DNA of 64,000 bases from a virus. Taxonomy: Duplodnaviria; Heunggongvirae; Uroviricota; Caudoviricetes. Within the stretch, counting starts at the first letter, position 1. Every line of letters starts with the position of its first letter. A program made the translations under genes and the position numbers. Positions 367 through 60,555 of this stretch are shown here, piece after piece. Location: the IMG/VR virus record IMGVR_UViG_3300028025_000093, positions 24,650-88,649 of that record; one strand, 5' to 3'. The notes under the pieces are model-generated. The model searched no databases and was not told the origin of the DNA. It was given only the letters and a program-made list of their open reading frames with translations.

Positions 367-440
367 GCTCTATTAGTATATTGGTATTATTCCTGTTTTG
401 TAGTCAGGTGAAGGTAGTTCGATTCTATCATGGAGCACCA
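367..440 (+). tRNA. tRNA-Thr(UGU)
   Basis: Acceptor GCTCTAT/ATGGAGC-A-CCA, anticodon loop TTTGTAG, T-loop TTCGATT; U-U mismatch at base of anticodon stem. Confidence 0.85.
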
Positions 441-441
441 A

Positions 442-516
442 GGTAATGTAGCACAGCGGTAGTGCAACTCCTTCATACGGAGTAGGTCGTTAGTTCGAAT
501 CTAACCATTACCACCA
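442..516 (+). tRNA. tRNA with CAU anticodon (elongator Met, or Ile2 if lysidinylated)
   Basis: GGTAATG/CATTACC-A-CCA; stem ACTCC/GGAGT, loop TTCATAC. Confidence 0.9.
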
Positions 517-533
517 AGCATAAGTAGTAGTGA

Positions 534-617
534 GCGCAAGTGGTGGAATGGTATACACGCTGGTCTTAGAAGCCAGTGCCGAAGGGATTGAGAGTTCGAG
601 TCTCTCCTTGCGCACCA
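534..617 (+). tRNA. tRNA-Leu(UAG)
   Basis: GCGCAAG/CTTGCGC-A-CCA; loop CTTAGAA; long variable arm. Confidence 0.95.
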
Positions 618-644
618 AATAACAATAACTGAAAGAGGTTAATC

Positions 645-821
645 ATGGCAACAAAAGGTGGTAATCAAAAAACTCGTAAAGCAGATCCAATGCGTACCAA
701 AACAGGTAAAGAACGTCTTGGTCCATTAAATGTGGCACAGTTGACTGCGTTGAAAGAAAGAACTTCTCAGAAGAAAACCATTGCCAAGATTCAAAAAGAA
801 ATAGATCGTAAGTCAAAGTAA
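645..821 (+). CDS. Small basic protein, 58 aa (MATKGGNQKTRKADPMRTKTGKERLG...), absent from ORF track
   Basis: GAGG SD then ATG at 645, open to TAA 819-821; Lys/Arg-rich. Confidence 0.75.
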   Translation: MATKGGNQKTRKADPMRTKTGKERLGPLNVAQLTALKERTSQKKTIAKIQKEIDRKSK

Positions 822-828
822 AGAATAT

Positions 829-903
829 TCCAAAGTAGCACAGCGGTAGTGCAGCAGACTGTTAATCTGTTGGTCGATGGTTCGATCCCATCCTTTGGAG
901 CCA
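829..903 (+). tRNA. tRNA-Asn(GUU)
   Basis: TCCAAAG/CTTTGGA-G-CCA; loop CTGTTAA. Confidence 0.95.
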
Positions 904-908
904 GTATT

Positions 909-983
909 GGGGGATTAGTGATAATGGGAGCACATGTGCTTTGCAAGCATGAAGTGGGAGTTCGATCCTCCCATCCTCCACCA
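909..983 (+). tRNA. tRNA-Ala(UGC)
   Basis: GGGGGAT/ATCCTCC-A-CCA with G3:U70 identity pair; loop TTTGCAA. Confidence 0.93.
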
Positions 984-992
984 GTTTAGTTT

Positions 993-1068
993 GCCCCAGT
1001 AGCTCATTTGGTAGAGCAACTGATTAGTAATCAGTAGGTGGGCGGTTCGAATCCGTCCTGGGGCACCA
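993..1068 (+). tRNA. tRNA-Thr(AGU), A34 anticodon
   Basis: GCCCCAG/CTGGGGC-A-CCA; stem ACTGA/TCAGT, loop TTAGTAA. Confidence 0.92.
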
Positions 1069-1072
1069 ATAT

Positions 1073-1146
1073 ATCTCGATGGTGTAATGGCAGCATAAGT
1101 GTCTCCAAAACACTTGGTTGGGGTTCGAGTCCCTATCGGGATGCCA
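1073..1146 (+). tRNA. tRNA-Trp(CCA)
   Basis: ATCTCGA/TCGGGAT-G-CCA; loop CTCCAAA. Confidence 0.92.
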
Positions 1147-2498: not shown

Positions 2499-3113
2499 AT
2501 GTTTACTCTTGTAGAAGATTGCAGTCCATATTATATAAAGTTTACTTATCCAGGTTCGGAAAAGGTAATTGATTTATGCAACAAATTACTGGAAACTTAT
2601 AAATTTGATCATGACAGATTTTTAACATTTGATGAAGAAACTGGTAAAAAAGTATTAGAAGAAACTAAGTTACTTCCATACTTTGATTTAATGTCGCATC
2701 GTGTTTCGATATTTTATACTGATAGACCATATAAATCTCCTGTGCATAAAGATGGAACAGATCATAGAATTAGTATTAACTTTGCAGTTAAAGTTCTTGA
2801 TAATAAATGCACAACAACTTGGTATCCAGATAGTATCGCTGAAGGGTACTCACCAGACTTAGCAGAAAAATATGCAAAAGCCAAACATAAATATCTAGGC
2901 ATCAATTCTAGAGAGTTTGATGATTTTGATGAAGATAAACACAAACCAATTGCAAGTATGGTTGCTAAGCAAGGTGAGGTTATATTATTCAATACTGATA
3001 TTTACCATCGCTGGGCGAATTTGTCACCCAATCATCGTGCCATGCTAACATTAAGAGTTAAGAATCCTGGCGATTTTTATTTTGAAGATGCCAAGAAAGT
3101 ATTATTTGGATAA
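2499..3113 (+). CDS. Cupin / 2OG-Fe(II) oxygenase-like protein
   Basis: PVHKD, ISINF, LFNTDIYH, RAMLTLR. Confidence 0.7.
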   Translation: MFTLVEDCSPYYIKFTYPGSEKVIDLCNKLLETYKFDHDRFLTFDEETGKKVLEETKLLPYFDLMSHRVSIFYTDRPYKSPVHKDGTDHRISINFAVKVLDNKCTTTWYPDSIAEGYSPDLAEKYAKAKHKYLGINSREFDDFDEDKHKPIASMVAKQGEVILFNTDIYHRWANLSPNHRAMLTLRVKNPGDFYFEDAKKVLFG

Positions 3114-3117
3114 CAAT

Positions 3118-4017
3118 ATGAATTTTTGTTATGGTAGTGATGGTTGGATACATTATGATTATAGCATAGTCAATCAACGTGCAACATTCTCAGTTGCACT
3201 AAAACCCACATCAACAGCCAAAGACGATATAAGTTTTGCTCAATCAGCAGATGATGTTGCAAAAGAATTGCATCAAACATACGGCAAAATATTCGTAGCA
3301 ATGAGCGGAGGAATAGACTCTGAGTATGTTGCAAATACATTCCTACGAAACAACATCCCAATCCAACCAATCATATTCAAAGCAGAAGATCTAAATGAGT
3401 TAGATGTTTGGTGGGCGATTGAGTGGTGTAAAACAAATAAAATAGAGCCAGTAATAATTAAACAAACAATCAAACAGTTCTGTGATGGATTGATTAAACA
3501 GTCACACAAATTTGGAGTCAGATGGTTTCCAGGTGTATATGGCATAAATCAGTGTGCCGAGCACGCAAAGAAAAATGGTGGTGTATTGATCACAGGCTCA
3601 GGTAATTATACTCATTACCCAGATCTCGTTTTATCGCAGATGAAGAAAACCAGTGAAGATGTTTATAAGTATGATGACTACCGAATTGTTGAAGACGGAT
3701 ACTATTTTCACTTACCGTTTTTAGTTAGCAATCAACTTAACCCAGAGATGCCATTTAGTTTTTATGATTGGAATCCACAGATAGTTTATAGTTATATAAA
3801 AGAATACGATTTAAATTTTAATAGTGCTGAGAACAAAGCCAGAATAATGGGTTGCGATAGAAGACCAAAGAACGTAGGATACCCAGAATACTTTTGGAGA
3901 ACTGAGCCACTACTTCAAGAAGAAAATCGCAAGAGAAGATTTATTTCCAAACCACAAACTGAAGTTGATTATCTTGGAACTAGAGAACACCTAATGAATT
4001 TACTTAGAGGAATATGA
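3118..4017 (+). CDS. PP-loop ATP pyrophosphatase (asparagine synthetase C-terminal-like, no glutaminase domain)
   Basis: VAMSGGIDSE motif near N-terminus. Confidence 0.75.
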   Translation: MNFCYGSDGWIHYDYSIVNQRATFSVALKPTSTAKDDISFAQSADDVAKELHQTYGKIFVAMSGGIDSEYVANTFLRNNIPIQPIIFKAEDLNELDVWWAIEWCKTNKIEPVIIKQTIKQFCDGLIKQSHKFGVRWFPGVYGINQCAEHAKKNGGVLITGSGNYTHYPDLVLSQMKKTSEDVYKYDDYRIVEDGYYFHLPFLVSNQLNPEMPFSFYDWNPQIVYSYIKEYDLNFNSAENKARIMGCDRRPKNVGYPEYFWRTEPLLQEENRKRRFISKPQTEVDYLGTREHLMNLLRGI

Positions 4018-4709
4018 TGGAATCGATGGAACAAAAACCAATTACCTATGTAAAGCACAATGATGAGGTTGTTGACGAGGTTCATAATCTCTGGCAAACT
4101 CCAGTAATTACTGCCAGACCATTCACTGAAGACTTTATCTGTCAACTTGAAAAAGATGTAAAGTATTTGTTAAAACCTGGAGCACCTGCTACACTTAACA
4201 AAACTAATATCTGGGAATTGCCAGACCTACCTGATAGTTTTAGAGAAGTAGAGAAAAAGTTTATTGAGCTAACTGACAAGTACTATCGCCCACTAACAGA
4301 AATGCCTTTGCCACCATTGTACTGTTCAAAGGGTTATTTCCGTGACATTAAACAAAACAGTGTTTATCGTATTTCACCACACAAGCATGCCCAGACATTG
4401 GGTGTTGGTATAATCTATCTTACTGTACCAAAACGTAACGCTGGTAATCTAGTCTTATTGGACCCACGTGGTGGTGTTATGTGGCACAATCAGTTTACGC
4501 CATTTAAACGTATTGCTGTTGAACGTGGTTTGATGGTTATTCATCCTGGATACTTAGTGCATTTCGTTGAGCCAACTGACTATGATAATGCTAGATATGA
4601 TTACAGAAATGCGTTAGTTTCTAACATTCACTGGAAACACGCTGACTTTATCAAAGAACTTGAGAAGAATGAAGAATCCGTATTCAAAATGGGGAGCATA
4701 GAGGTATGA
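4014..4709 (+). CDS. Putative 2OG-Fe(II) oxygenase, TIGR02466-like
   Basis: PHKH, GIIYL, GNLVLLDPRGG, HPGYLVHFVEP. Confidence 0.75.
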   Translation: MMESMEQKPITYVKHNDEVVDEVHNLWQTPVITARPFTEDFICQLEKDVKYLLKPGAPATLNKTNIWELPDLPDSFREVEKKFIELTDKYYRPLTEMPLPPLYCSKGYFRDIKQNSVYRISPHKHAQTLGVGIIYLTVPKRNAGNLVLLDPRGGVMWHNQFTPFKRIAVERGLMVIHPGYLVHFVEPTDYDNARYDYRNALVSNIHWKHADFIKELEKNEESVFKMGSIEV

Positions 4710-6130
4710 TGTTTTTTGAAAAATATAATGATTTTATGGATGTTGATCCAAGAAAAGACAGAGCATTGACACAAGTTAATGCAGAGTCTATGACCAAGAG
4801 GTGTGAAGTTACTATACCAAAATGGTTAGTAGAAGGTAAAACTATTTTAGATTTAGGATGTTGTTATGGTGCTTACGGACAGTGGGCACTTATGCATGGA
4901 GCAAAACATTATACAGGCGTAGAACTACAAAAGAAGTTTGTTAATCCTGGAAGAGATTTGTTAAATAAGTATCACGACGAATCTAAATTCTCAATGATTG
5001 AACAAGATGCAGCAGAATTCCTTGAACAAAATAATCAGAAGTATGACATAATTATTGCAGCTGGAGTTATCCATGGATATACTGATGTAATACATTTCTT
5101 AAAACTTATTTCCGAACATGCCAATGAGTATGTTCTTATAGAATCAATTGAGTTGCCTGAGCCACACTATCCAAGAATTGAATTTAAACCATATAGAATG
5201 GTAATCCCTAAAATTAATGATAGTGGTCTGTATAGATATTCTGAAGGTATGACTCCTATTGCTGGGTTTAAAGCAGTAACACTAATTCTAAATGAATATG
5301 GTTTTGAAAACGATGGTGGTAGAATTAAACCAGAAAAGATAAACACGTGTCAAGACATATACAATAGTGCTATTGATGACGCAAAAACAAATTCAGATCC
5401 AACTAGAATTACAGCAAATAGATTTATATCTAGATATGTAAAATCTTCTGAAACTAAAAAGGTTTCGTTACAACACAAGACAGAAAAGAATAATGGAAAC
5501 TTCTTACCGAAGCCTTGGAAGTTTGATGATGATGTAGCTAAAAGATTCCAGCGAGAAGCAAGAACTAATATACCAGATTACGATAGAGTTATTGGTATGT
5601 GTTTAGCATTAGCAAACAAAAAATTTGATAAAACCTGTTCAGTAATTGATGTTGGTTCTGCTCTTGGATATACAATTGATGTTTTCACTAAAGACGGATT
5701 TAAAACTGTATCTGGAGTAGATAACTCTAAAGAGATGATTAACCACTGTCCTTACAAAAATTTTATTACATTATCAGATAAGTTACCAAAAGGTAACTAT
5801 GATTTAGTATTGGCTAATTGGACATTGCACTTTGTCAATGAACGTAAGCAATATATCCAAGATGTTTACGATTCTCTATCTGCCAATGGCACGTTTATCC
5901 TGTCAGAAAAAACCACACAGAGCGATGATGTTAAAGAACTGTATTATGACTTCAAACGCAACAATGGTATTACTGATGAATACATATATGAAAAGGAAGA
6001 GAAGCTAAAGGGATATATGAATCTAATGCCTGTTGAATGGTATTTACAAACCCTTGGTGATATTGGTTTCAAGTCAATACAAATTATTAATAGTAGACTT
6101 GGGTTTGTTACGTTTTATTGTAATAAATAA
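4706..6130 (+). CDS. Two-domain SAM-dependent methyltransferase; N-terminal CmoB-like class I domain, C-terminal CmoA-like domain
   Basis: N: GKTILDLGCCYG...GAKHYTGVE; C: WKFDDDVAKRF...IPDY, DVGSALG, VDNSKEMI, NWTLHF, FILSEK, DFKRNNG, aligning with recalled E. coli CmoA. Confidence 0.8.
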   Translation: MMFFEKYNDFMDVDPRKDRALTQVNAESMTKRCEVTIPKWLVEGKTILDLGCCYGAYGQWALMHGAKHYTGVELQKKFVNPGRDLLNKYHDESKFSMIEQDAAEFLEQNNQKYDIIIAAGVIHGYTDVIHFLKLISEHANEYVLIESIELPEPHYPRIEFKPYRMVIPKINDSGLYRYSEGMTPIAGFKAVTLILNEYGFENDGGRIKPEKINTCQDIYNSAIDDAKTNSDPTRITANRFISRYVKSSETKKVSLQHKTEKNNGNFLPKPWKFDDDVAKRFQREARTNIPDYDRVIGMCLALANKKFDKTCSVIDVGSALGYTIDVFTKDGFKTVSGVDNSKEMINHCPYKNFITLSDKLPKGNYDLVLANWTLHFVNERKQYIQDVYDSLSANGTFILSEKTTQSDDVKELYYDFKRNNGITDEYIYEKEEKLKGYMNLMPVEWYLQTLGDIGFKSIQIINSRLGFVTFYCNK

Positions 6131-6639
6131 TGCAAGATCTTTTTCACTGTTTTGAAAACTATCCCAGCTTGAGTTCATCAATTATTCAAGAAGGTAGTAC
6201 TTCTACATTCAGTGAACATTATTATCCACACGTATATAAAGCTGACTGCTCATTTGGTAGTTGTAATTTTGTAAATTTACTAAAACAAAACTTAGGTGAC
6301 GTAACTGCTCTATGGATACAAAACCCACCAAATACATTATACGATTGGCATATTGATAGGGAAATTCGTCAGTGTTCTATTAACTTTGAGATTAAAGAAA
6401 ACCACAATGCCATGGCACTATTTCGTGAACCAATAGGTAAGGGTAAAGACATAATCTATTACAATATACATAAGGTTAAATACGCAATTGGTAAACCAAC
6501 AGTATTGAATGTCAAAAGCCCACACTGCGTAATAAACCACTCCAACGAATCCAGAGTTATATTAAGTTTGTGTGTTCACAAATCGTCATATAAAGAAACT
6601 GTGGATTATATGAAAACCTTAAACATAAGTGAATACTAA
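6130..6639 (+). CDS. Cupin / oxygenase-like protein
   Basis: DWHID, CSINF, LNVKSPHCV, RVILSL pattern shared with 2499..3113. Confidence 0.6.
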   Translation: MQDLFHCFENYPSLSSSIIQEGSTSTFSEHYYPHVYKADCSFGSCNFVNLLKQNLGDVTALWIQNPPNTLYDWHIDREIRQCSINFEIKENHNAMALFREPIGKGKDIIYYNIHKVKYAIGKPTVLNVKSPHCVINHSNESRVILSLCVHKSSYKETVDYMKTLNISEY

Positions 6640-6900
6640 ATGTGGTTCAATAATCATCTAAAAGAAGCTGCACTTTACTCCAGAACTAAAACTGGCGTAA
6701 AGTTCTATTTCACTCATATGCTCTGGGCAATACACTTGGCTGGTTTACTATTTGTTTGGTCATTACTTATGATAGTGCACGCTATTGTACCGCAGCTGGT
6801 AGGATTTACAATACTTGAGAATATAGTTAATTTACTCAAGCAAATGAAACTGCAACATCCCGATGACCCTTTACTAAAAAAGATAAACTTTGATGCATAG
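6640..6900 (+). CDS. Small membrane protein, DUF6356-like
   Basis: HL.E...YF.H...A......MIVHAIVP pattern; hydrophobic core. Confidence 0.6.
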   Translation: MWFNNHLKEAALYSRTKTGVKFYFTHMLWAIHLAGLLFVWSLLMIVHAIVPQLVGFTILENIVNLLKQMKLQHPDDPLLKKINFDA

Positions 6901-7604: not shown

Positions 7605-7799
7605 ATGACAGAACCACTATCGTTTAAAGAACAATGGGAAGCAAAAAAGCTACTCAAGAAGTCAAAGAAGAAAGCACGCAATAATGCCATGAAGGAACAC
7701 GGCATGACTAAAAGCGAAGCTACCTCGGCAGTTAAAAAAGCTGTAGGTCGCATTGCTTCAAATAAACCAACAACTCGTTCAGCTGGTCGAGGAAGATAA
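7605..7799 (+). CDS. Small basic protein
   Basis: GAGGAG SD before ATG 7605; very Lys/Arg-rich. Confidence 0.75.
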   Translation: MTEPLSFKEQWEAKKLLKKSKKKARNNAMKEHGMTKSEATSAVKKAVGRIASNKPTTRSAGRGR

Positions 7800-8680
7800 T
7801 GCGTTTATTTGTTATGATGGCATCACTGATGCTAAGTACGGTAGTTGCAGCCCAAGAAACTGTGCGTATCTATAGTCCATACTCGGCAACGCATTCTGGT
7901 ACGCCAGCAATGTATCGCATCTTGGAAACTGCCAACAAATCTCAAAACATCTATAACTTTATACTTGAGTTCAAACCAGGTGGTAATCAGATAATTGCGT
8001 TAAAAGCAATGGATGAAAACTCTCTGGCCATTATTGCACCAGCATTCGTTGAGAACGTTGCTGCAGGTAAAGTTATTGAGTCAGATTACATTCCAATCCA
8101 TACTATCGGTGATGCTTGCTGGACTGTAATTACCAATGGACCAATCAATGCCAACAAAGAACTAACAGTTGGTGGTGTAGGTTTTGGTAATGCAGCACAT
8201 CTAACAGCCCTAGCACTTGGAGAGAAATACAAGTTCTCAGTTCGTTACATTGTGTTTAAGTCCAACAACGACGCACTTGTAAATATGGCTGGTAATAATG
8301 GAATCTTTATGGTGATTGATCGTTACGAAGCGTATGAGTCAATGAAAACCAAGAATCCAAATCTACAAGCATTCGCTGCATCTTGTCCAGTTAGACTACC
8401 AATGGCACCAAAGGTCAAGACGCTAAAGGAAATTGGTATTGATGCGCCATACGTATTTAATATTACAGTTGCTCACAAGTCAATGAATTCAACAAAGCGT
8501 AAAGCCATTGGCATCATTCTAAACGATGCTCAAGAAAAGGTTGGAGCAGATGAAATCTTCAAGATCTCAGGTATGAAGATACCGCAGGAAAGTGCTCAGG
8601 AATTCTATACTAAGTCTATTACAAAGGTGCAAACTTTGCAAGCCAAGTATCGTAAAGAAATAGAACAAGCCAGCAAATGA
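7799..8680 (+). CDS. Bug/TctC tripartite tricarboxylate transporter substrate-binding protein
   Basis: Signal peptide; VRIYSPYS, KPGGNQIIA, GFGNAAHL, LP.APKVKTLKEIG motifs. Confidence 0.8.
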   Translation: MRLFVMMASLMLSTVVAAQETVRIYSPYSATHSGTPAMYRILETANKSQNIYNFILEFKPGGNQIIALKAMDENSLAIIAPAFVENVAAGKVIESDYIPIHTIGDACWTVITNGPINANKELTVGGVGFGNAAHLTALALGEKYKFSVRYIVFKSNNDALVNMAGNNGIFMVIDRYEAYESMKTKNPNLQAFAASCPVRLPMAPKVKTLKEIGIDAPYVFNITVAHKSMNSTKRKAIGIILNDAQEKVGADEIFKISGMKIPQESAQEFYTKSITKVQTLQAKYRKEIEQASK

Positions 8681-21079: not shown

Positions 21080-21732
21080 TGAAAACATTTATACATCATG
21101 ATCTACCCAAACTTGTACGTGACACCAAACCCAATGGTACCAGAGTCTACAAGACACCATCGGGTTCAGCCTATCCAAGCGTCACCACAGTTACAGGCTT
21201 ACACTCAGCAAAAGGAATCGCAGAGTGGCGGAAGCGAGTTGGCGAAGCAGAAGCCAACCGCATCTCCGCAAAAGCCAGTTCAAGGGGAACACGGATTCAC
21301 CAGTACTGTGAAGACTACCTACGAGGAAACATATTCGAAGCAGATATGTTTGACCTCCAAATGTTTAACTCAATCAAACCCTTGCTCGACCAAGTTGACA
21401 ACATTCACTGTTTGGAAGATGCGTTATATTCTGACCACTTACAAGTCGCTGGAACAGTGGACTGCATCGCAGAGTTCCAAGGTAAACTTAGTGTCATAGA
21501 TTTTAAAACATCTAGCAAGCCAAAAGATCGTGATGATATTCACAATTACTTTATGCAGACTGCAGCTTATGCTGTTGCATTTGAAGAACTGACAGGTATC
21601 CCTATTGGCAGACTTGTAATCATTATGGCAGTAGACAATGATGATCCTCGTTGGTTTATTGAAAAGCGAGACAATTGGATTGGTGGATTTAAAAAGCTAA
21701 GATTGGATTACAAAAATAAATTTGCTTTATAA
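21079..21732 (+). CDS. PD-(D/E)XK exonuclease (Cas4-like)
   Basis: YPSVTT, GTRIH, AGTVDC, VIDFKTS, QTAAYA. Confidence 0.9.
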   Translation: MKTFIHHDLPKLVRDTKPNGTRVYKTPSGSAYPSVTTVTGLHSAKGIAEWRKRVGEAEANRISAKASSRGTRIHQYCEDYLRGNIFEADMFDLQMFNSIKPLLDQVDNIHCLEDALYSDHLQVAGTVDCIAEFQGKLSVIDFKTSSKPKDRDDIHNYFMQTAAYAVAFEELTGIPIGRLVIIMAVDNDDPRWFIEKRDNWIGGFKKLRLDYKNKFAL

Positions 21733-21750
21733 ACATATATAAAGTATAAT
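21722..21750 (+). promoter_or_regulatory. sigma70-type promoter of tmRNA
   Basis: TTGCTT-N17-TATAAT. Confidence 0.7.
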
Positions 21751-21756
21751 TAAGGT

Positions 21757-22074
21757 TATTGCTGTATGAAGCAAAGAGAAAAGTGTTCTGGACGAGGGTT
21801 CGATTCCCTCCACCTCCACCAAAAGTATATTGACAAACCAGATTAAGTTCAGGTAGCAAACACGAAAGTGGCAATATACTTCTGATGGGGGTGACTAGGT
21901 TTCGACAGGGCAACAAGTAAACAAGTGGACAGCACGGGAATGTGAAACCCGTAGGATTGGGGAAACTCGGTCGAAGAAGCAAAAAACGTAAATGCAAACG
22001 ACGCACAGTTCGCTTTAGCAGCCTAAACACTGCTTAGGGTTTCGATAGGTTTCCTCGTAACAGAATAACCTATC
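21757..22074 (+). ncRNA. ssrA: Circularly permuted (two-piece) tmRNA; tag ANDAQFALAA at 21994-22026
   Basis: T-arm GAGGGTTCGATTCCCTC and CACCTCC-A-CCA ending 21821 lie BEFORE the 5' GGGGGTG strand at 21887 (G3:U70); resume context TAAAT-GCA; tag ends ALAA-TAA. Confidence 0.92.
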
Positions 22075-22091
22075 ACTAATTTAAGGATATT

Positions 22092-22370
22092 ATGCAAATT
22101 ACACCATTGAAAAATAAAGTTCTTGTTGCTGAAAACAAGACAGAACATAAAAGTGAATCAGGTATTATTTTGGATGGAGTGAATTCAGTTGCCGTGTCAA
22201 AGACAGCTACTGTGTTGGCTATTGGTCCAGATGTAGTTGATGTTGTAGTTGGAGATGTTGTTTATCTAGAATGGCCAAAGGGTCAGATTGTTAAGATAGG
22301 TGATGCTCAACGTGTTATCATTGAAGATAAATATATTGTAGCAGTTTTAGAAAAGGATACTACTAAATGA
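22092..22370 (+). CDS. groES: GroES-like co-chaperonin
   Basis: ITPLKNKVLV, SESGIIL, VLAIGP, VGDVV. Confidence 0.85.
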   Translation: MQITPLKNKVLVAENKTEHKSESGIILDGVNSVAVSKTATVLAIGPDVVDVVVGDVVYLEWPKGQIVKIGDAQRVIIEDKYIVAVLEKDTTK

Positions 22371-22573
22371 AGAAATTTTTAATTGCACTAAACTTAGTCA
22401 TCTGGTCATTCGTTGGATTTCAAGTTAGTTCATATGCAGCTGAACCAGCAAAGAAAGATGTTCCAGCAGTACAGAATGATAATTGCGTGAAGAAAGACAA
22501 GAATGGTAAGTGTCCTGCACTACCAAATTCACCAAAGCCTACTCCTAAGAAAAAAGTAGAAGATAAGAAGTAA
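22367..22573 (+). CDS. Small exported protein
   Basis: MKK + hydrophobic signal ending YAA; Cys pair. Confidence 0.65.
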   Translation: MKKFLIALNLVIWSFVGFQVSSYAAEPAKKDVPAVQNDNCVKKDKNGKCPALPNSPKPTPKKKVEDKK

Positions 22574-22650
22574 GCTAAATAGTATACACGAGGGTTGAGA
22601 GAACCCTTTAAAACTCTCATTTTACACACAACACAGAAAGGTATTACAAT

Positions 22651-22923
22651 ATGAGTAACATGACTCCGTTCGAGATTCGCCTAGAACTTTTAAAAATGGC
22701 GAAAGACATGCTTAACGATGAGTACTACGGTAAGCGTGAACAAATTAGCAACGACTGGCATGTAAAGGTCGATTCTGCTAAACTCAATGGTGGAGTGATT
22801 CCTGAACATCCAGGATTCCCTTCTTATCCATCCGAAGCCGATATCATTGCAAAGGCAACTGCCCTAAATGGTTTTGTTTCAAACATCCCTCTAGATACAA
22901 AGACTAGCAAAAAGTCCACCTGA
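22651..22923 (+). CDS. Conserved T4-like hypothetical protein
   Basis: TPFEIRLELLKMAKDML; CTAAATA box at 22575. Confidence 0.75.
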   Translation: MSNMTPFEIRLELLKMAKDMLNDEYYGKREQISNDWHVKVDSAKLNGGVIPEHPGFPSYPSEADIIAKATALNGFVSNIPLDTKTSKKST

Positions 22924-22931
22924 TAAGGGGT

Positions 22932-22951
22932 TGGGGTGCATTCGTGCACCC
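22932..22951 (+). other. UUCG-capped GC-rich hairpin
   Basis: GGGGTGCA-TTCG-TGCACCCC; weak U tract, so terminator or stabiliser. Confidence 0.65.
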
Positions 22952-22974
22952 CTCTTACTAACAAGGAGATAACT

Positions 22975-23478
22975 ATGCGAGTATATACAAAAATACTCTT
23001 ATCGATTGCGTTAATTATATCAATTACTGCGATTGCTGTAAAGCAAAATAATGATGGTGATTTAAAAATCGCTTATACAGAACTAACTAAAGACGCTAAG
23101 AAACAAATTGATTGTCTTGCTGAAAACATTTATTATGAAGCAGGATGGGAACCACCTAGTGGTCAACTTGCAGTTGCTCTGGTTACTTTAAACCGAGTCA
23201 ACGATCCAAGATTTCCCAAAGACATTTGTAATGTTGTAAAACAAAAGACACAAGGTATGTGTCAGTTCTCTTGGTTTTGTGAACCACTTAAACCAAAGAA
23301 CCAATATGTTTACCGTAAGAATTTAGAAGTAGCGTTATACGCATACGCTAATTATGAACGTATACAGGACTTGACTCAAGGTGCTATATACTATCACGCT
23401 GATTACGTGAACCCTCGTTGGAAGTTGGAAAAGACTACTACAATTGGTAGACATATATTTTATAAGGATTACAAATAA
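22975..23478 (+). CDS. SleB/Hydrolase_2 cell-wall hydrolase
   Basis: CLAENIYYEA, AVALVTLNRV, CQFSW, YYHADYVNP.W, IGRHIFY; N-terminal anchor. Confidence 0.9.
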   Translation: MRVYTKILLSIALIISITAIAVKQNNDGDLKIAYTELTKDAKKQIDCLAENIYYEAGWEPPSGQLAVALVTLNRVNDPRFPKDICNVVKQKTQGMCQFSWFCEPLKPKNQYVYRKNLEVALYAYANYERIQDLTQGAIYYHADYVNPRWKLEKTTTIGRHIFYKDYK

Positions 23479-24035
23479 TGATGCAAAAACTGAATCTGCA
23501 GCTAAAGGATGAGCAATCTGCACATTCATTCTTTTTATTGATGGAAGATATTTCATTATCTACCTGCAAACAAGCCATCGAATGGATCCTAGAAGCAAAC
23601 TTTTCCGAAGAACGACCAGACATGTTAAATCTGTTGGTGTGTTCTCCAGGTGGTGATTTAAATGCTGCGTTTGCGTTAGTTGACACCATGCGTGGTTCAG
23701 CTATTCCAGTTCGCACAATCGGCTTGGGTCAAATTGCATCGGCAGGATTGTTAATTTTTATCAGTGGCGAAAAGGGTCAACGTATCCTTACCCCAAATAC
23801 TTCAATTCTATCACATCAATATTCTTGGGGTGCGTTTGGTAAAGAGCATGAGTTGTTTGCCACTATTAAAGAGTTTGACTTAACCACAAAGCGTATGATT
23901 GCTCACTATAAAAAATGCAGTGGTCTTACAGAACAAAAAATTCGTGAAGTGCTACTTCCACCACAAGACGTTTGGTTGTCTGCCATGGAAGCTAAAAAAT
24001 TAGGATTATGCGACGATGTTAAAGATCTTAAGTAA
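23478..24035 (+). CDS. clpP: ClpP-like serine protease
   Basis: SPGGD, IASAG (Ser), SHQ (His), WLSAMEAKKLGL.D. Confidence 0.88.
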   Translation: MMQKLNLQLKDEQSAHSFFLLMEDISLSTCKQAIEWILEANFSEERPDMLNLLVCSPGGDLNAAFALVDTMRGSAIPVRTIGLGQIASAGLLIFISGEKGQRILTPNTSILSHQYSWGAFGKEHELFATIKEFDLTTKRMIAHYKKCSGLTEQKIREVLLPPQDVWLSAMEAKKLGLCDDVKDLK

Positions 24036-24204
24036 TTATATTCGTTACTCTGGTATTTGGGTTACCTTTGGATTAAACCCACTTCACTGGAGTTTTAAAT
24101 TTGAATTCATGCATCCTGACGAGTTAAATCCAAAGATGCGTGGAATCTACTTTGTACTGGCATTTGTGTCAGTACGTATTGTTATTGATGATGGTTCTTG
24201 GTAA
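24016..24204 (+). CDS. Hypothetical protein
   Basis: ORF track. Confidence 0.6.
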   Translation: MLKILSNYIRYSGIWVTFGLNPLHWSFKFEFMHPDELNPKMRGIYFVLAFVSVRIVIDDGSW

Positions 24205-24214
24205 GGAGAATAGT

Positions 24215-24454
24215 ATGGAACGTAAAGATATTATTGCATTTATTTTTGGCGCAGTTTTAGTTGCCATGACTGCTATTATTTGTATGACATATTACAGTCT
24301 GCAAAGAGATTCAGCAATGAAGTCAAATATTGAATCAGCAATTGTAAAGGGAATTGACCCTATTGCAGTTCGTTGTGCTTATGGATCAAGCGATACTCTA
24401 TGCATCGTTTACGCATCTACCCACAACAAAGAGATTCCCAACTCTAAGAAGTAA
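24215..24454 (+). CDS. Membrane-anchored hypothetical protein
   Basis: AAGGAG SD; one TM; GIDPIAVRCAY. Confidence 0.7.
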   Translation: MERKDIIAFIFGAVLVAMTAIICMTYYSLQRDSAMKSNIESAIVKGIDPIAVRCAYGSSDTLCIVYASTHNKEIPNSKK

Positions 24455-24518
24455 TCCCAATAACCCTCAGTTCTTGAGGGTTATTTTCCCCTTTAAAATC
24501 AATGACTTACGTGAGGGG

Positions 24519-24547
24519 TTTACTTTAATTCAATTTCAGCGTATAAT
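24519..24547 (+). promoter_or_regulatory. sigma70-type early promoter
   Basis: TTTACT-N17-TATAAT; preceded by hairpin 24459-24484 and ATCAATGACTTAC. Confidence 0.8.
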
Positions 24548-24576
24548 TATATTATGATGATTGAAAAGGAGTTGTT

Positions 24577-24786
24577 ATGAAATATCGTGTTATTGTGAAT
24601 GGTGTATCTTTTTATACCACTGGTGCTGCAATTAAACGTGGCGTTGGCGATTCTGTTAGCGTCAATACTGTAGTTCGCCAGCTGTTTGAAAACTTGTTTA
24701 ACGCAGTTGGCATTGCTTCAACAATGACAGTGTATGATAACAAGATGAACCGAGTTAAGTACGACGTTCAAATATCCAAAGTTTAA
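24577..24786 (+). CDS. Hypothetical protein
   Basis: AGGAG SD. Confidence 0.7.
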   Translation: MKYRVIVNGVSFYTTGAAIKRGVGDSVSVNTVVRQLFENLFNAVGIASTMTVYDNKMNRVKYDVQISKV

Positions 24787-24787
24787 C

Positions 24788-24816
24788 TTTACTTTAATTC
24801 AGTAATCAGGTATAAT
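24788..24816 (+). promoter_or_regulatory. sigma70-type early promoter, leaderless
   Basis: TTTACT-N17-TATAAT, ATG at 24823. Confidence 0.8.
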
Positions 24817-24822
24817 TATATT

Positions 24823-25164
24823 ATGATGATTTTTACCACACCACATCGTTCCAAAAAACGCAAGCCTACGGCAAAGCAACGGGAGTTGTCTAATTCTTGG
24901 AACGATCTGTTAAAGAAGTACCCCACAAAGACTGTTGTGAGACCAAAGCAACAACTCAGTGACGTGTACTCGCTTGGAAAACCTGCTTGTCGTGAGACAC
25001 CTAAGATTCCAAGTCTTCCCTTCAGTGGTGGTGCATGCACCAAAAAAGATTCACCAGTGTATACAGGTACCAAGATCAAAGGTATCGGTACAATGCACAA
25101 GTCGAATGCAGTTCCTATATTTTCTGATGAAGAAGCAGTGGCTATTGCCACTATGCGGAGATAA
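24823..25164 (+). CDS. Conserved basic T4-like hypothetical protein
   Basis: YTGTKIKGIGTMHKSNAVPIF...MRR. Confidence 0.75.
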   Translation: MMIFTTPHRSKKRKPTAKQRELSNSWNDLLKKYPTKTVVRPKQQLSDVYSLGKPACRETPKIPSLPFSGGACTKKDSPVYTGTKIKGIGTMHKSNAVPIFSDEEAVAIATMRR

Positions 25165-25165
25165 T

Positions 25166-25399
25166 ATGAATAAAAAGGTTTTGATGAAGATTCGCTTGAA
25201 GCAAGATGGTACTTGGGAACATGTCTATCAAGATGGTTCTGTAGATGATGAGTTTTATCAATTGAATGTTGTAGAACTTGCCAAGATGCAACGTGCCAAA
25301 TATTTTGAGCAATCCCAAGATTATGTTGAACAAGCTGTTGAGATTTCTGGTTACAAAGATGCTATTCAAGTTATCGATCATATAAGGAAATTGAAATGA
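25166..25399 (+). CDS. Hypothetical protein
   Basis: GGAG SD favours ATG 25166. Confidence 0.65.
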   Translation: MNKKVLMKIRLKQDGTWEHVYQDGSVDDEFYQLNVVELAKMQRAKYFEQSQDYVEQAVEISGYKDAIQVIDHIRKLK

Positions 25400-25584
25400 G
25401 CGAGTTCTGCGTAAAGTGTGCTGAAAAAGAAGCACAGATGGAAATTGTATTAAAGAAATACTATGATGAAATTGAAATCCTCAAGAAACGTATTGAGAAG
25501 TTGGAAAATGAAAATGAAGCACTAATTTTAGATGTGGCATTTTATGGTGGTAATATGATCAACTTGTCTTGTGATAACAAATAG
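25396..25584 (+). CDS. Small coiled-coil protein
   Basis: ORF track; coupled. Confidence 0.65.
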   Translation: MSEFCVKCAEKEAQMEIVLKKYYDEIEILKKRIEKLENENEALILDVAFYGGNMINLSCDNK

Positions 25585-25595
25585 GAATTTATATA

Positions 25596-25856
25596 ATGAA
25601 CGCAGCATATCAACAACTTGTAACAGCCAGTGCAAATAATGATAGACAAACTCTTAATGATATCTACATTTCTTTGCTAAATCAAAAAATGAAGTTGGAT
25701 AAATTCTTTAGTATGTTTCTTGATAAACTTGGCGACAAAATGGATCCCGATGAAACTGATACTCCAGTCTGGAAATTATATCGTGAAAAGACTAAAGAGT
25801 ATTCTGAGTTGGATAAAACAATTAAAATTGCCAACTATTACTTGAAGAAGAGCTAA
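25596..25856 (+). CDS. Hypothetical protein
   Basis: AGGA SD. Confidence 0.7.
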   Translation: MNAAYQQLVTASANNDRQTLNDIYISLLNQKMKLDKFFSMFLDKLGDKMDPDETDTPVWKLYREKTKEYSELDKTIKIANYYLKKS

Positions 25857-56671: not shown

Positions 56672-58144
56672 ATGAGTTTGTATAAAATGGTTCTTACTGG
56701 AGCCAATGATGTGGAACAGTATTTAATTTATGATCCAATGACTTCTGAGATCTACTGGGAAGAAACTGGTGAGCAGCCTACTCTGGAATACATTTCAAAG
56801 GGGTTGACTTACCAGATTGACTCCAAAGTGTGGACTCCAGCTAAAGTTACAAATCCCCACAATCCTGAACTTCACGGTAAGAAATCACGCAAGCCAACTA
56901 CACTTAAAATCACAATGGGTCTTAAGTGTAATTATGCGTGTTCTTACTGCAATCAAGCCCATCAGCCACATGACCCAGTAGGTGGTCCAGAAGATGCTGA
57001 AGAGTTGGTTGAAAAGATGAAAAAGAGTTTTGACTTCAACACTTATGATAAGTTTCGTTTAGAATTCTGGGGCGGTGAGCCTATGGTTTATTGGAAGACA
57101 CTAAAACCACTTGCAGAAAAACTTAAAAAAGTTTATCCGAATGCTCAATTTATGATGGTTACCAATGGTTCTTTACTAACTAGAGAAAAGATAGATTGGT
57201 TTAATCGCATGGGATTCGCTATTGGTATGTCTCACGATGGTCCACTGCATGCGCAGAATCGTGGTCCAGATCCACTAGATGAACCAAAAGCTAAAGATGC
57301 TGTAGTTTATGCGTTAAAAACTATGGGTCAAGGTAGATTTACATTCAACTGCGTATTGACACGTGAGAATGTTTCAATACCAGCTGTTCGAGATTTTATT
57401 TGCGATAAGTTGAATCGCAAAGATTTTGGTTATGATGATGTGAAAGTTGATCAAATGGAACTTCAGGTAACTACTGAAGAATTGATGTTGCCTTATGATG
57501 ATGGTGGAATGGCACATTCTTTGCAAACTCCAGATGAAAAGAAAGAAATATTACATGCACTTTTCTGGGAAACTATCCAAGGAAATAATCAGTTTAGTTG
57601 GACAGTAAACTCAAAAATTACTGGGTTCTTTGAATCTTTAGTTTATAAGAGACCTGCAGAAGTAGTTGGTCAAAAGTGTGGTATGGATAAAGAAGATAAC
57701 ATTGCTATCGATATGAAGGGTAATGTTACTACTTGCCAGAACACTTCTTCATTAACCAAACACAATTTAGGTAATATTGAAGACTTAGATAATGTTAGAT
57801 TGACTAACTCATATCACTGGTCTACACGAGCCGAATGCCCTTCTTGTCCTGTAGTTCAGTTGTGTCAAGGAGCTTGTTTGTTCCTAGAAGATAAACACTG
57901 GTCTCAAGCATGTGAGAACTTATTCTATTACAATCTTGCAATTTTAGCAGGATCTCTGTTCATAATGACTGACGGATTAATTTTGACTAGAATAGAAGGC
58001 GAGAAGATTAGGTTTGATGATGTCAAAGCACTTGATATTATTGACATCAATTTTGTTAAATCTGGTGGAACTAAAAAATCTTGGAAGGTTCGTAAGCCAA
58101 TTAACATTCCAGTAGTTTCTATTCCAGAGATGCCAGTAGTATAA
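56672..58144 (+). CDS. Radical SAM enzyme with SPASM domain
   Basis: CNYACSYC (CxxxCxxC), FWGGEP, SHDG; SPASM: KCG..GNVTTC and CPSCPVVQLCQGAC..C; CTAAATA at 56634. Confidence 0.93.
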   Translation: MSLYKMVLTGANDVEQYLIYDPMTSEIYWEETGEQPTLEYISKGLTYQIDSKVWTPAKVTNPHNPELHGKKSRKPTTLKITMGLKCNYACSYCNQAHQPHDPVGGPEDAEELVEKMKKSFDFNTYDKFRLEFWGGEPMVYWKTLKPLAEKLKKVYPNAQFMMVTNGSLLTREKIDWFNRMGFAIGMSHDGPLHAQNRGPDPLDEPKAKDAVVYALKTMGQGRFTFNCVLTRENVSIPAVRDFICDKLNRKDFGYDDVKVDQMELQVTTEELMLPYDDGGMAHSLQTPDEKKEILHALFWETIQGNNQFSWTVNSKITGFFESLVYKRPAEVVGQKCGMDKEDNIAIDMKGNVTTCQNTSSLTKHNLGNIEDLDNVRLTNSYHWSTRAECPSCPVVQLCQGACLFLEDKHWSQACENLFYYNLAILAGSLFIMTDGLILTRIEGEKIRFDDVKALDIIDINFVKSGGTKKSWKVRKPINIPVVSIPEMPVV

Positions 58145-59437: not shown

Positions 59438-59464
59438 AGGGGATGTTTAGGCATCCCCTTTTTT
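59438..59464 (+). terminator. Intrinsic terminator-like hairpin
   Basis: AGGGGATG-TTTAGG-CATCCCCT + T run. Confidence 0.75.
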
Positions 59465-59475
59465 ATTGGGGATAT

Positions 59476-60555
59476 ATGAATCAAATTTTATTTTATAACA
59501 CTGGATTTGTTAGGCAAGTTATAGAACAGCAGCCTAATATTTTAGATGGATACTTGTTAGATAAAGATCTATTTCATTTTTATGATAAACATAAAATGAA
59601 CTTAAATGTAGCTTATGATAGAACAGGTAATGTCCCGCACTATTTGAATATTAAGTCTGGATTACTTCAGATACCTAAAGTTGATTCAGCTTTTAATAAA
59701 TCATTCGCTGAGTGCGTTGAGGATAGGTGTAAAGAACTATTATCTCTTGGTAAGCGAATAAATGTAGTGTGGAGTGGCGGAATAGACAGCACATTAGTTT
59801 TGTGTGCTTTGTTACACTACGCAAATGATCCCAGTCAAATAGTTGTATACGGAACGTACACATCCGTTTTAGAATCAGGTGATTTCTTAGAGAAACGAAT
59901 TATCCCCAGAGGTGTTGAGGTAAAACTTAAAGTATCTTCTCGTAGAGATTTTGATGATTGTTCATCAGATGAGATTTTTGTTACTGGGTTTTTTGGCAAC
60001 CAGCTATTTGGACCAACGGATAACTTTTCAGTAAACTCAACTGTAAAAACTGACATATCATTCTTTCATCATCAGTTCAATGGTGATCCTCTAGAGGATT
60101 ATACAAAGTATGTTGACCCAGAACTTCACGAGTTTTTGTTGCCGTGCATTAAAGCTAGCCCCAAGAAAATAGAAACGCTAAGAGATTTACGCTGGTGGCT
60201 TATATTTAATTTTGATTGGTATACTGCAGAATTTGCAACTAGAGTAAATACTAATCAGCAGAATAATCAATATCACTTTTTTAATACTGATGATTTTCAG
60301 CGTTATGTTCTAACTACAAAAGAACCATTTACTAAAGAAGTTGGTAATCCGCTTACACATCGTTGGGTAATGCGACAGTTAATTGAAGAGATGACTGGAG
60401 ACAGCAATTATGCTTGGACAAAACCAAAAGGGGTTTCCAATTTAGGAAACCCCGATCCAACATGGTTGCTTTTACTAGAAGATTATAGTGTGTTTAAATT
60501 ACCAACTACATCTTTTATAAATCAAAGCAGGATTACTGCCCAAAACCGACCTTGA
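59476..60555 (+). CDS. PP-loop ATP pyrophosphatase (asparagine synthetase C-terminal-like)
   Basis: VVWSGGIDSTLV, VTGFFGNQLFG, FFNTDDFQ. Confidence 0.8.
   Translation: MNQILFYNTGFVRQVIEQQPNILDGYLLDKDLFHFYDKHKMNLNVAYDRTGNVPHYLNIKSGLLQIPKVDSAFNKSFAECVEDRCKELLSLGKRINVVWSGGIDSTLVLCALLHYANDPSQIVVYGTYTSVLESGDFLEKRIIPRGVEVKLKVSSRRDFDDCSSDEIFVTGFFGNQLFGPTDNFSVNSTVKTDISFFHHQFNGDPLEDYTKYVDPELHEFLLPCIKASPKKIETLRDLRWWLIFNFDWYTAEFATRVNTNQQNNQYHFFNTDDFQRYVLTTKEPFTKEVGNPLTHRWVMRQLIEEMTGDSNYAWTKPKGVSNLGNPDPTWLLLLEDYSVFKLPTTSFINQSRITAQNRP

Follow-up and report, generated by a model that had tools for sequence, protein, structure and literature searches.

Can a phage protein that carries a CmoA-like domain and a second methyltransferase-fold domain in one chain, and that has Glu in place of the Arg associated with binding of carboxy-S-adenosylmethionine (Cx-SAM), be a Cx-SAM synthase joined to the enzyme that uses its product? 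Cx-SAM is one of very few natural derivatives of S-adenosylmethionine (SAM), and the question is raised by P0001, a two-domain methyltransferase-fold protein of 474 residues encoded at positions 4706-6130 (+) of a 64,000-nucleotide stretch of viral DNA (the window), which spans bases 24,650-88,649 of a viral record (IMGVR_UViG_3300028025_000093; here also G000) that is complete at 161,882 bp and has direct terminal repeats. The reading frame is open, and Pfam sees in it two class I methyltransferase domains, at residues ~42-140 and 305-413. The protein can be divided into an N-domain (residues 1-245; 4706-5440, +), a class I SAM-dependent transferase that is distantly CmoB-like, a poorly conserved linker rich in Lys, Ser and Asn (residues 246-265; 5441-5500, +), and a C-domain (residues 266-474; 5501-6127, +) of the CmoA clade with an intact set of SAM-binding motifs. 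The comparisons described below show that the C-domain is a divergent CmoA-clade member that keeps the SAM-binding residues and the lid motif of CmoA, and support functional coupling of the two domains; that these, together with an ATPase encoded nearby, carboxymethylate nucleic acid is the reading tentatively preferred.

With respect to the C-domain, all five motif pairs by which a prior reading of these letters alone (the sequence-only reading) had likened the C-terminal half to CmoA match the real E. coli protein, the E. coli K-12 CmoA and CmoB sequences being taken from NC_000913.3 (E. coli CmoA/P0001: DWTFDERVA/PWKFDDDVA, IDNSPAMI/VDNSKEMI, NFTLQF/NWTLHF, DFKRANG/DFKRNNG, QKRSMLENVM/EKEEKLKGYM). 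By phmmer, P0001 matches CmoA of PDB entry 4gek with E 4e-13 and H. influenzae YecO with E 1.6e-11, and a 62-sequence family profile matches 4gek/1im8 with E 1e-28, spanning CmoA residues 30-254, the next best profile match, 8k5l, reaching only 2.5e-9. The AlphaFold model of residues 266-474 has a predicted local distance difference test score (pLDDT) of 95, and CmoA structures alone occupy ranks 1-6 when it is searched with Foldseek (template modelling, TM, scores 0.84-0.86). As in E. coli CmoA, with which the C-domain aligns along the whole chain, the N-terminal lid motif W-x-F-D-x-x-V-A is kept, with W271, F273, A278, F281, P290 and Y292 conserved, and so are the SAM contacts Y292, D315, G317, D339-N340, D358, N371 and F376 (CmoA Y39, D62, G64, D89/N90, D117, N132 and F137), the exception being CmoA S66, which is replaced by Ala319, an invariant residue in the family. 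Unlike their E. coli counterparts, both domains of P0001 score far below curated cut-offs; the top NCBIfam match of the C-domain, TIGR00740, gives 70-71 bits vs a cut-off of 193.3, and NF011995 gives 54-56 vs 285, both below the equivalog thresholds. As a calibration, the validated CmoA of Synechococcus phage S-B43 (SpCmoA) too fails TIGR00740, at 115.6 bits, yet lies 45 bits above the C-domain.

The position singled out in the sequence-only reading is that of E. coli Arg199, which, as reported by Byrne et al., salt-bridges the carboxylate of the bound cofactor and which these authors assumed to define Cx-SAM binders (PMC3663124). Four methods, i.e. phmmer against 4gek, the family profile against 4gek, MAFFT and hmmalign, place Glu431 of P0001 (codon 5996-5998, +) on Arg199, next to Lys430 (5993-5995, +), the equivalent of CmoA Lys198; no alignment puts an Arg there. 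The replacement of Arg by Glu noted from the sequence alone is thus borne out, and it is a family trait, the site being Glu in 101, Lys in 14 and Gln in one of 117 full-length homologues, all of which retain the preceding Lys. Over the 63 viral loci for which counts are given here (the locus survey comprising 62 IMG/VR loci), the site is Glu, Lys, Ala, Gln or Val, never Arg; it follows that it is not a conserved determinant of cofactor or specificity in this family. A role for Glu431 as a metal ligand analogous to CysG Asp191 was likewise considered and dropped, the variability of the site and the residue spacing both being unsuited to it.

The accompanying proposal, that an acidic residue should disfavour Cx-SAM, is not supported. 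SpCmoA, which carries Glu at the same position, makes Cx-SAM from SAM and prephenate with a kcat of 2.33 per s, the value for the E. coli enzyme being tenfold lower (PMC12783734); an acidic residue is therefore compatible with Cx-SAM synthesis. By MAFFT, hmmalign and BLASTP, KEKELR of SpCmoA lies on KRSMLE of the E. coli enzyme, with Glu at 199 and, a turn of the helix further on, Arg at 203, and in the corresponding KEEKLK of P0001 it is Lys435 (6008-6010, +) that sits on the Arg of SpCmoA. Arg199 is poorly conserved among phage CmoAs generally, since it is missing from two further homologues, which sit beside C5 methylases or alone: the SPbeta-like cmoA of a Staphylococcus phage (L013, 2998-3684) has Ser at 199 and Arg at +4, and that of Aeromonas phage HJ05 (L012, 2645-3382) has Asn at 199.

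The fusion itself, also put forward in the sequence-only reading, is confirmed and proves to be common, with at least 270 full-length two-domain homologues at 38-66% identity; a profile search of 1.8 billion representatives gave 179 N-domain clusters at E <1e-30, fused and stand-alone. Family members come from contigs of viruses and from assembled metagenomes, part of one large-fusion cluster with related N-domains may be of non-viral origin, and no cultured phage in the INPHARED collection has the full-length fusion. The domains are fused in ~40 loci, and in ~20 others an N gene is followed by an overlapping C gene, the gene boundary in these split forms coinciding with the linker region; in a few loci the N and C genes are separated, or the C gene is alone. 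The fused and the split but adjacent arrangements together provide Rosetta-stone evidence that the two domains act together, which fits a cofactor synthase and a transferase in one protein. The proposal of such a one-chain system accordingly stands with regard to the coupling of the halves, but the N half is a CmoB family member by no curated threshold.

The systems known to use Cx-SAM each pair a CmoA with a separate transferase, namely CmoB, TglF, MccB's C-terminal domain or CmoX (PMC10491745, PMC12783734). As with E. coli CmoA and CmoB (4gek, 4qnu), P0001 and its relatives pair a CmoA-clade domain with a second class I transferase fold, and gene coupling in the family recalls that of the cmoA-cmoB operon; unlike the E. 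coli proteins, P0001 is a single chain, in which the transferase precedes the synthase. A CmoA homologue also feeds a dedicated carboxymethyltransferase in the TglE/TglF (3-thiaglutamate) and MccS/MccB C-terminal domain (microcin C-like) systems (PMC10491745), although these, to judge from their descriptions, differ in being bacterial, in consisting of separate proteins and in acting on peptide or peptidyl-nucleotide substrates, genes for which are not found here. The S-B43 authors, searching outward from CmoX, reported no other CmoA-linked carboxymethyltransferases (PMC12783734), and in the literature that we searched no phage pair or fusion of the CmoA-like/CmoB-like kind is described.

The N-domain may be termed loosely CmoB-like, rather than a member of the CmoB family, its weak specific affinities all being to CmoB. 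Its only specific family signal is to the CmoB family PF08003, which is the commonest specific Pfam match (23 of 62 members, all sub-threshold); a few relatives exceed the PF08003 cut-off, over the Rossmann core only. For P0001 the scores are 17.7 vs 23.8 for PF08003, 25-31 vs 209 for NF011650 and 23-29 vs 275 for TIGR00452, all below the cut-off. The nearest ESM-Atlas cluster is a 225-residue 'tRNA mo5U34 methyltransferase' with PF08003 in 65% of its members, and hhalign rates the match with E. coli CmoB, which covers residues 121-269 and extends past the Rossmann core, at 86% probability. In a global hhalign alignment of low confidence (57%), residues 1-245 lie on CmoB 91-323, His123 lies on CmoB Tyr200 (Tyr in 24, His in 20 and Phe in five of 54 family members), and the invariant R239, in P-x-R239, lies on P313-K-R315 of CmoB, where Tyr200 and Arg315 are contacts of the cofactor carboxylate. 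Invariant residues of the N-domain are D14, R16, R19, R/K32, D49, G51, Y69, D114, G120, R239 and R243, of which the basic ones (R16, R19, R/K32, R239, R243) suggest an anionic ligand.

Structural comparison, which for the C-domain ranks CmoA first, does not single out CmoB for the N-domain. The AlphaFold2 model of the latter (pLDDT 94) shows a class I fold that is extended at the C-terminal end by a β-rich part. In VIA-align, dozens of methyltransferases score Z 16-17.5 and CmoB (4p7c) 15.9, the CmoB alignment being the longest (207 residues); in Foldseek, the first rank goes to ToxA and ranks 16-47 to CmoB. Among PDB sequences, the N-domain family profile finds only ToxA and PRMT1 (E ~1e-5), CmoB not being listed. 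Thus the label 'CmoB-like' of the sequence-only reading can be kept for the direction of the weak sequence signals, but not as a family assignment, given that the scores lie below all curated cut-offs and that the N-domain, unlike CmoB, is without the first ~90 residues, including Lys91. In CmoB Lys91 is essential for Cx-SAM selectivity, and K91A CmoB becomes a methyltransferase (PMC4482062).

A third component is suggested by the neighbouring genes. After clustering of all neighbours, PP-loop ATPases emerged as one recurrent enzymatic partner, present within 6 kb in 28 of the 63 loci; they fall into four clusters that are remote relatives of one another (93-97% by hhalign among the three that were compared), to one of which the PP-loop ATPase of the window (3082-4017, +; SGGIDS at residue 75) belongs. 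The PP-loop gene overlaps the N/C pair in ~8 loci, among them L023, L062, L066, L068, L069, L075 and L077, and is fused to the N-domain or to both domains in four database proteins, with the arrangements N plus PP-loop (P0131), PP-loop plus N plus C (P0255), PP-loop plus N plus cupin (P0228) and PP-loop fragment plus N (P0237). Chance adjacency in the window is unlikely, because the genome has only two PP-loop ORFs (open reading frames) in 162 kb. The second of these, at window 59443-60555 (+; SGGIDS, 370 residues), is near a radical-SAM protein (phrog_1802, 56672-58144) and may mark a second modification cassette, possibly with the cluster-6 PP-loop type. The viral PP-loop clade is without a curated family, its Pfam matches being split between QueC, MnmA, Asn_synthase and NAD_synthase. 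Homologues of the 2-oxoglutarate (2OG)-Fe(II) oxygenase-like gene that lies immediately before P0001 (4014-4709, +; PF13759, 27.5 bits) are present in 19 of the 63 loci, often directly upstream; besides the PP-loop ATPase and 2OG oxygenases, neighbourhood clustering of the 63 loci gave no conserved metabolic partner.

The closest parallel to this arrangement is in phage S-B43, where the CmoA gene is the first of a trio (CmoA, Asn-synthase-like, cytosine methylase). There CmoA, CmoX and CmoY make 5-carboxymethylcytosine and its glycine amide in DNA, the pathway thus adding an ATP-dependent ligase that amidates the new carboxylate (PMC12783734). P0001 and its surroundings share with it Glu at the Arg199 position (KEKELR in S-B43, KEEKLK in P0001) and the tight linkage of genes for a synthase, a transferase and a PP-loop/Asn-synthetase-like ATP-dependent enzyme. 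The ATP-binding half of the PP-loop protein matches CmoY-type ligases (S-B43, PaBG, Erwinia phage Y3) in hhalign at 94.6%, over 99 columns only; BLAST and phmmer gave no match between ORF 3082-4017 and these ligases, profile comparison alone linking them. The differences are that the transferase here has a CmoB-like class I fold, whereas CmoX is a C5-cytosine methylase with an SPPC motif and a carboxylate-binding Arg, that similarity to CmoY is limited to the ATP-binding half, that the C-domain is only ~32% identical to S-B43 CmoA over 112 residues, and that the context here is one of tRNA arrays, there of replication genes. The shared three-part logic, taken with the pairing of CmoA with a transferase in every known Cx-SAM system, favours a model of synthase, transferase and ATPase.

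As to the substrate, which is predicted from context only, tRNA is the most plausible choice. The genome has one array of 27 tRNA genes (G000 21450-25795), the last seven of which (Thr-UGU, Met, Leu-UAG, Asn, Ala-UGC, Thr-AGU and Trp) lie at window 367-1146 (+), 3.56 kb upstream of P0001. ARAGORN finds tRNA or transfer-messenger RNA (tmRNA) genes within 6 kb in 31 of the 63 loci and within 100 bp in 14, and in L029, L032, L035, L036, L041, L047, L050 and L073/74 the gene is embedded in a tRNA array with spacers of 6-18 bp. The linkage to tRNA is suggestive only, the local control used to assess it, which gave a modest excess, being conservative. Among the phage tRNAs there is a single species with uridine at wobble position 34 (U34) for Pro and for Val, Ala is represented by UGC only, in two copies, and Thr-UGU and Leu-UAG are present; Ala-UGC, Thr-UGU, Pro-UGG, Val-UAC and Leu-UAG are five of the six E. 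coli species that carry 5-carboxymethoxyuridine (cmo5U) (PMC5909439).

The reading we tentatively prefer, short of an even chance, is thus that a cofactor synthase, a carboxymethyl transferase and a carboxylate-activating amide ligase form one module that acts on nucleic acid, most plausibly on the wobble uridines of phage tRNAs; the enzymatic roles in it are predictions. The C-domain would convert SAM to Cx-SAM or a very close analogue, and Glu431 is no obstacle to this, because a proven Cx-SAM synthase has Glu there. The N-domain would take the scarce cofactor directly and move its carboxymethyl group onto a nucleophile of a nucleic-acid base, most plausibly a 5-hydroxylated wobble uridine in the single-isoacceptor family-box tRNAs of the phage (Ala-UGC, Thr-UGU, Pro-UGG, Val-UAC, Leu-UAG), the hydroxyl group of which may be supplied either by the host or by the 2OG-Fe(II) oxygenases encoded alongside. 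Adenylation and amidation of the new carboxylate would follow, carried out by the PP-loop ATPase (3082-4017) in the manner of CmoY in phage S-B43.

Several observations weigh against this proposal. The C-domain diverges further from canonical CmoA than do any of the phage CmoAs compared (TIGR00740 70 bits vs 116 for SpCmoA and 121-155 for other phage CmoAs), and its active site has changes (Gln136 to His375, Ser66 to Ala319, with Y383, Y413 and W445-Y446) that are absent from Cx-SAM synthases. Only ~40% of members have a basic residue four positions after Glu431; the charge swap seen in S-B43 is thus not general. Fold searches cannot separate CmoB from dozens of class I methyltransferases, and P0001 starts where CmoB Lys91 would lie, the placing of its first residue on CmoB residue 91 leaving no room for the ~100-residue N-terminal domain that is specific to CmoB. 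The PP-loop clade bears no specific likeness to Asn synthetase, MnmA and NAD synthetase being its best matches in the PDB (E ~8e-4), and the other neighbours are mixed and metabolic (desaturase, peroxiredoxin, β-keto-acid cleavage enzyme (BKACE), acyl-CoA ligase, TctC). Proximity to tRNA genes is not significantly greater than for other ORFs in the same +/-6 kb loci (22% vs 13%, p 0.06), accessory genes in general tend to gather in the tRNA regions of T4-like phages, and the phage genome has neither a TrhP nor a rhodanese/TrhO gene.

The changes in the active site bear on the main rival, i.e. that both domains are plain SAM methyltransferases, the C-domain having lost, or never acquired, ylide/carboxylation chemistry and using His375 as a base or metal ligand, and the N-domain adding a second methyl group to the same molecule, for which the tandem phosphoethanolamine N-methyltransferases of plants provide a two-methyl parallel. 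The real family-specific active-site change is His375 (codon 5828-5830, +; in NWTLHF) rather than Glu431. It is invariant in the family C-domains (63 of 63), the E. coli (Gln136), S-B43, SPbeta-like and HJ05 CmoAs having Gln, and it is one of a set of positions that are at least 85% conserved yet unlike both E. coli and S-B43 CmoA (His375, Ala319, Trp372, Tyr383, Tyr413, Trp445-Tyr446 and Pro361). It lies in the post-β4 motif lining the transfer site, and aligns with the first His of the IHHL motif of MM_2633; in CysG/BelI its counterpart is probably the leading His of the His-His-Asp calcium site. Together with the low TIGR00740 score, these changes leave room for altered chemistry.

This plain methyl-transfer alternative, which we consider somewhat unlikely, draws on that invariant replacement of Gln by His and on the family-specific aromatic residues, as well as on the fact that the small-cap O-methyltransferases CysG/BelI and MM_2633 (9fcl, 9fce, 3dtn) are the nearest folds after CmoA (TM ~0.80, Foldseek E 1e-14) and have His at the His375 position. 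Their sequence similarity is, however, marginal (E 7e-4 to 7e-9, vs 1e-28 for CmoA); by sequence CmoA, with its lid motif, outranks every true methyltransferase by ~20 orders of magnitude, and the second His and the Asp of the CysG/BelI metal triad are not evident in the P0001 family. Also in favour of this alternative, the C-domain scores far under the CmoA cut-off, and under validated SpCmoA as well, and the missing Lys91 region of the N-domain can be set beside the conversion of CmoB to a methyltransferase by K91A (PMC4482062). Plain methylation nonetheless leaves unexplained both the constant pairing of a CmoA-type domain with a second transferase fold and the fused or adjacent PP-loop partner, of a carboxylate- or carbonyl-activating type.

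An unlikely alternative is that the module is an auxiliary metabolic one acting on a small metabolite, e.g. a carboxylic or hydroxy acid, an osmolyte or a lipid precursor. It would account for accessory-gene islands with acyl-CoA ligase, short-chain dehydrogenase/reductase (SDR), BKACE, MaoC and TctC/DctP binding proteins, for desaturase, AhpC, α/β hydrolase and class IV aminotransferase neighbours, and for the best PDB matches of the N-domain being small-molecule N-methyltransferases such as ToxA and MtfA. None of the metabolic neighbours is conserved family-wide, however, in contrast to the PP-loop ATPase and the tRNA arrays, which are met again in unrelated settings, and the known CmoA-clade systems all act on tRNA, DNA or peptide/nucleotide antibiotics (PMC10491745). 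Individual loci of this kind can be described as follows. In two 170-kb relatives, L004 (1165-4242, 7445-8035) and L009 (2235-5306, 7433-8023), acyl-CoA ligase, SDR, BKACE, oxygenase and MaoC genes surround the fusion, in what looks like a phage-carried small-molecule pathway. A TctC-like periplasmic solute-binding protein is encoded at window 7799-8680 (+), the same type being near family members in the unrelated contigs L008, L010 and L072, and L008 has a DctP-like periplasmic solute-binding protein as well.

Less probable again is a variant of the preferred scheme in which the CmoA-derived domain, with its invariant His375 and aromatic replacements, makes another SAM derivative, or uses a donor other than prephenate, and the transferase and PP-loop protein build an amide-capped wobble modification, of a kind not seen before, on the phage tRNAs; if true, single U34 tRNAs would read whole codon boxes independently of the host. 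It is very doubtful that the two domains are instead a CmoB-like and a CmoM-like pair, the first using host Cx-SAM to give cmo5U and the second methyl-esterifying its carboxylate (mcmo5U-type). Such a pair would suit the tRNA array context, and 8k5l (the deposition of which bears the old name 'tRNA (cmo5U34)-methyltransferase') and the carboxyl O-methyltransferases BioC, Tam, JHAMT and CysG recur among C-domain matches, but in sequence the C-domain resembles CmoA far more than it does 8k5l or any carboxyl methyltransferase, one carboxylate would be contested by the PP-loop ligase and the methyl-ester cap, and a host that makes Cx-SAM would be required. It is just as improbable that the target is phage DNA, with CmoX-independent base carboxymethylation and then amidation for restriction evasion: phage DNA hypermodification by CmoA with an Asn-synthetase-like ligase is a precedent (PMC12783734), and Erwinia jumbo phages have CmoA, Asn synthase and oxygenase with no adjacent C5 methylase, but the complete 161,882-bp genome has no DNA methyltransferase motifs, no PF00145 (C5 DNA methylase) and no ThyA-type hydroxymethylase, and the N-domain shows no affinity to DNA methylases. 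In Erwinia phage Y3 (L011, 4028-6619) the gene order is CmoA (Arg199 kept), Asn-synthase-like, 'oxygenase', and this gene set of Erwinia/Dickeya jumbo phages parallels the island of the window.

That island is of seven genes in a row, with overlapping stops and starts, in the genome of a marine phage that baseplate wedge, hub and lysozyme genes at window 36-45 kb indicate to be a T4-like myovirus (GC ~37%). Its first members, all on the + strand, are a 2OG-FeII_Oxy_3-like gene (1754-2497) and an ORF of 204 residues with no family assigned (2499-3113), followed by the PP-loop ATPase and the second oxygenase-like gene, which is translationally coupled to P0001 and the stop of which P0001 overlaps by 4 nt at its start. 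The stop of P0001 in turn overlaps the start of a translationally coupled ORF of 169 residues (6130-6639, +), which has counterparts in nine related loci, and a coupled membrane-like ORF of 86 residues (6640-6900, +) completes the row; a matching ORF of 84 residues in L004 and L009 is called DUF6356, and its cluster is found in 16 loci. Between the tRNA array and the island is an RNase H-like protein (1231-1725, +; PF04308, 66 bits) with homologues in 12 related loci. The array itself has, along with two Thr-UGU genes, a tRNA-Thr of a rare type, its anticodon being AGU. Downstream of the fusion in L029, L032 and L041, the tRNA genes are interspersed with those for a dual-specificity phosphatase, a calcineurin-like phosphoesterase and an AAA_33 kinase, a set resembling one for RNA repair or healing. 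ARAGORN also finds a permuted two-piece tmRNA with the tag ANDAQFALAA at window 21729-22117 (+), and similar tmRNAs are near the pair in L043, L059, L066, L069 and L070; their ANDxxFALAA-type tags hint at hosts among the alphaproteobacteria or cyanobacteria.

The comparison with S-B43 CmoA corrects a textbook assumption, in that Arg199 is not required for Cx-SAM synthesis, which alters how CmoA homologues are to be annotated. To our knowledge, only four transferase partners of Cx-SAM are known, i.e. CmoB, TglF, MccB's C-terminal domain and, since late 2025, phage CmoX. The P0001 family would be a fifth, specific to phages and with hundreds of members, in which synthase and transferase share one chain and an ATP-dependent third enzyme recurs. 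As a natural fusion of synthase and transferase it would be an attractive scaffold for enzymatic carboxymethylation. More broadly, the family points to hypermodification of nucleic acids in T4-like and jumbo phages that abound in aquatic settings and, if the target is tRNA, would represent the first phage-encoded pathway for wobble (carboxy)alkylation, giving control of decoding to phages that carry full tRNA sets.

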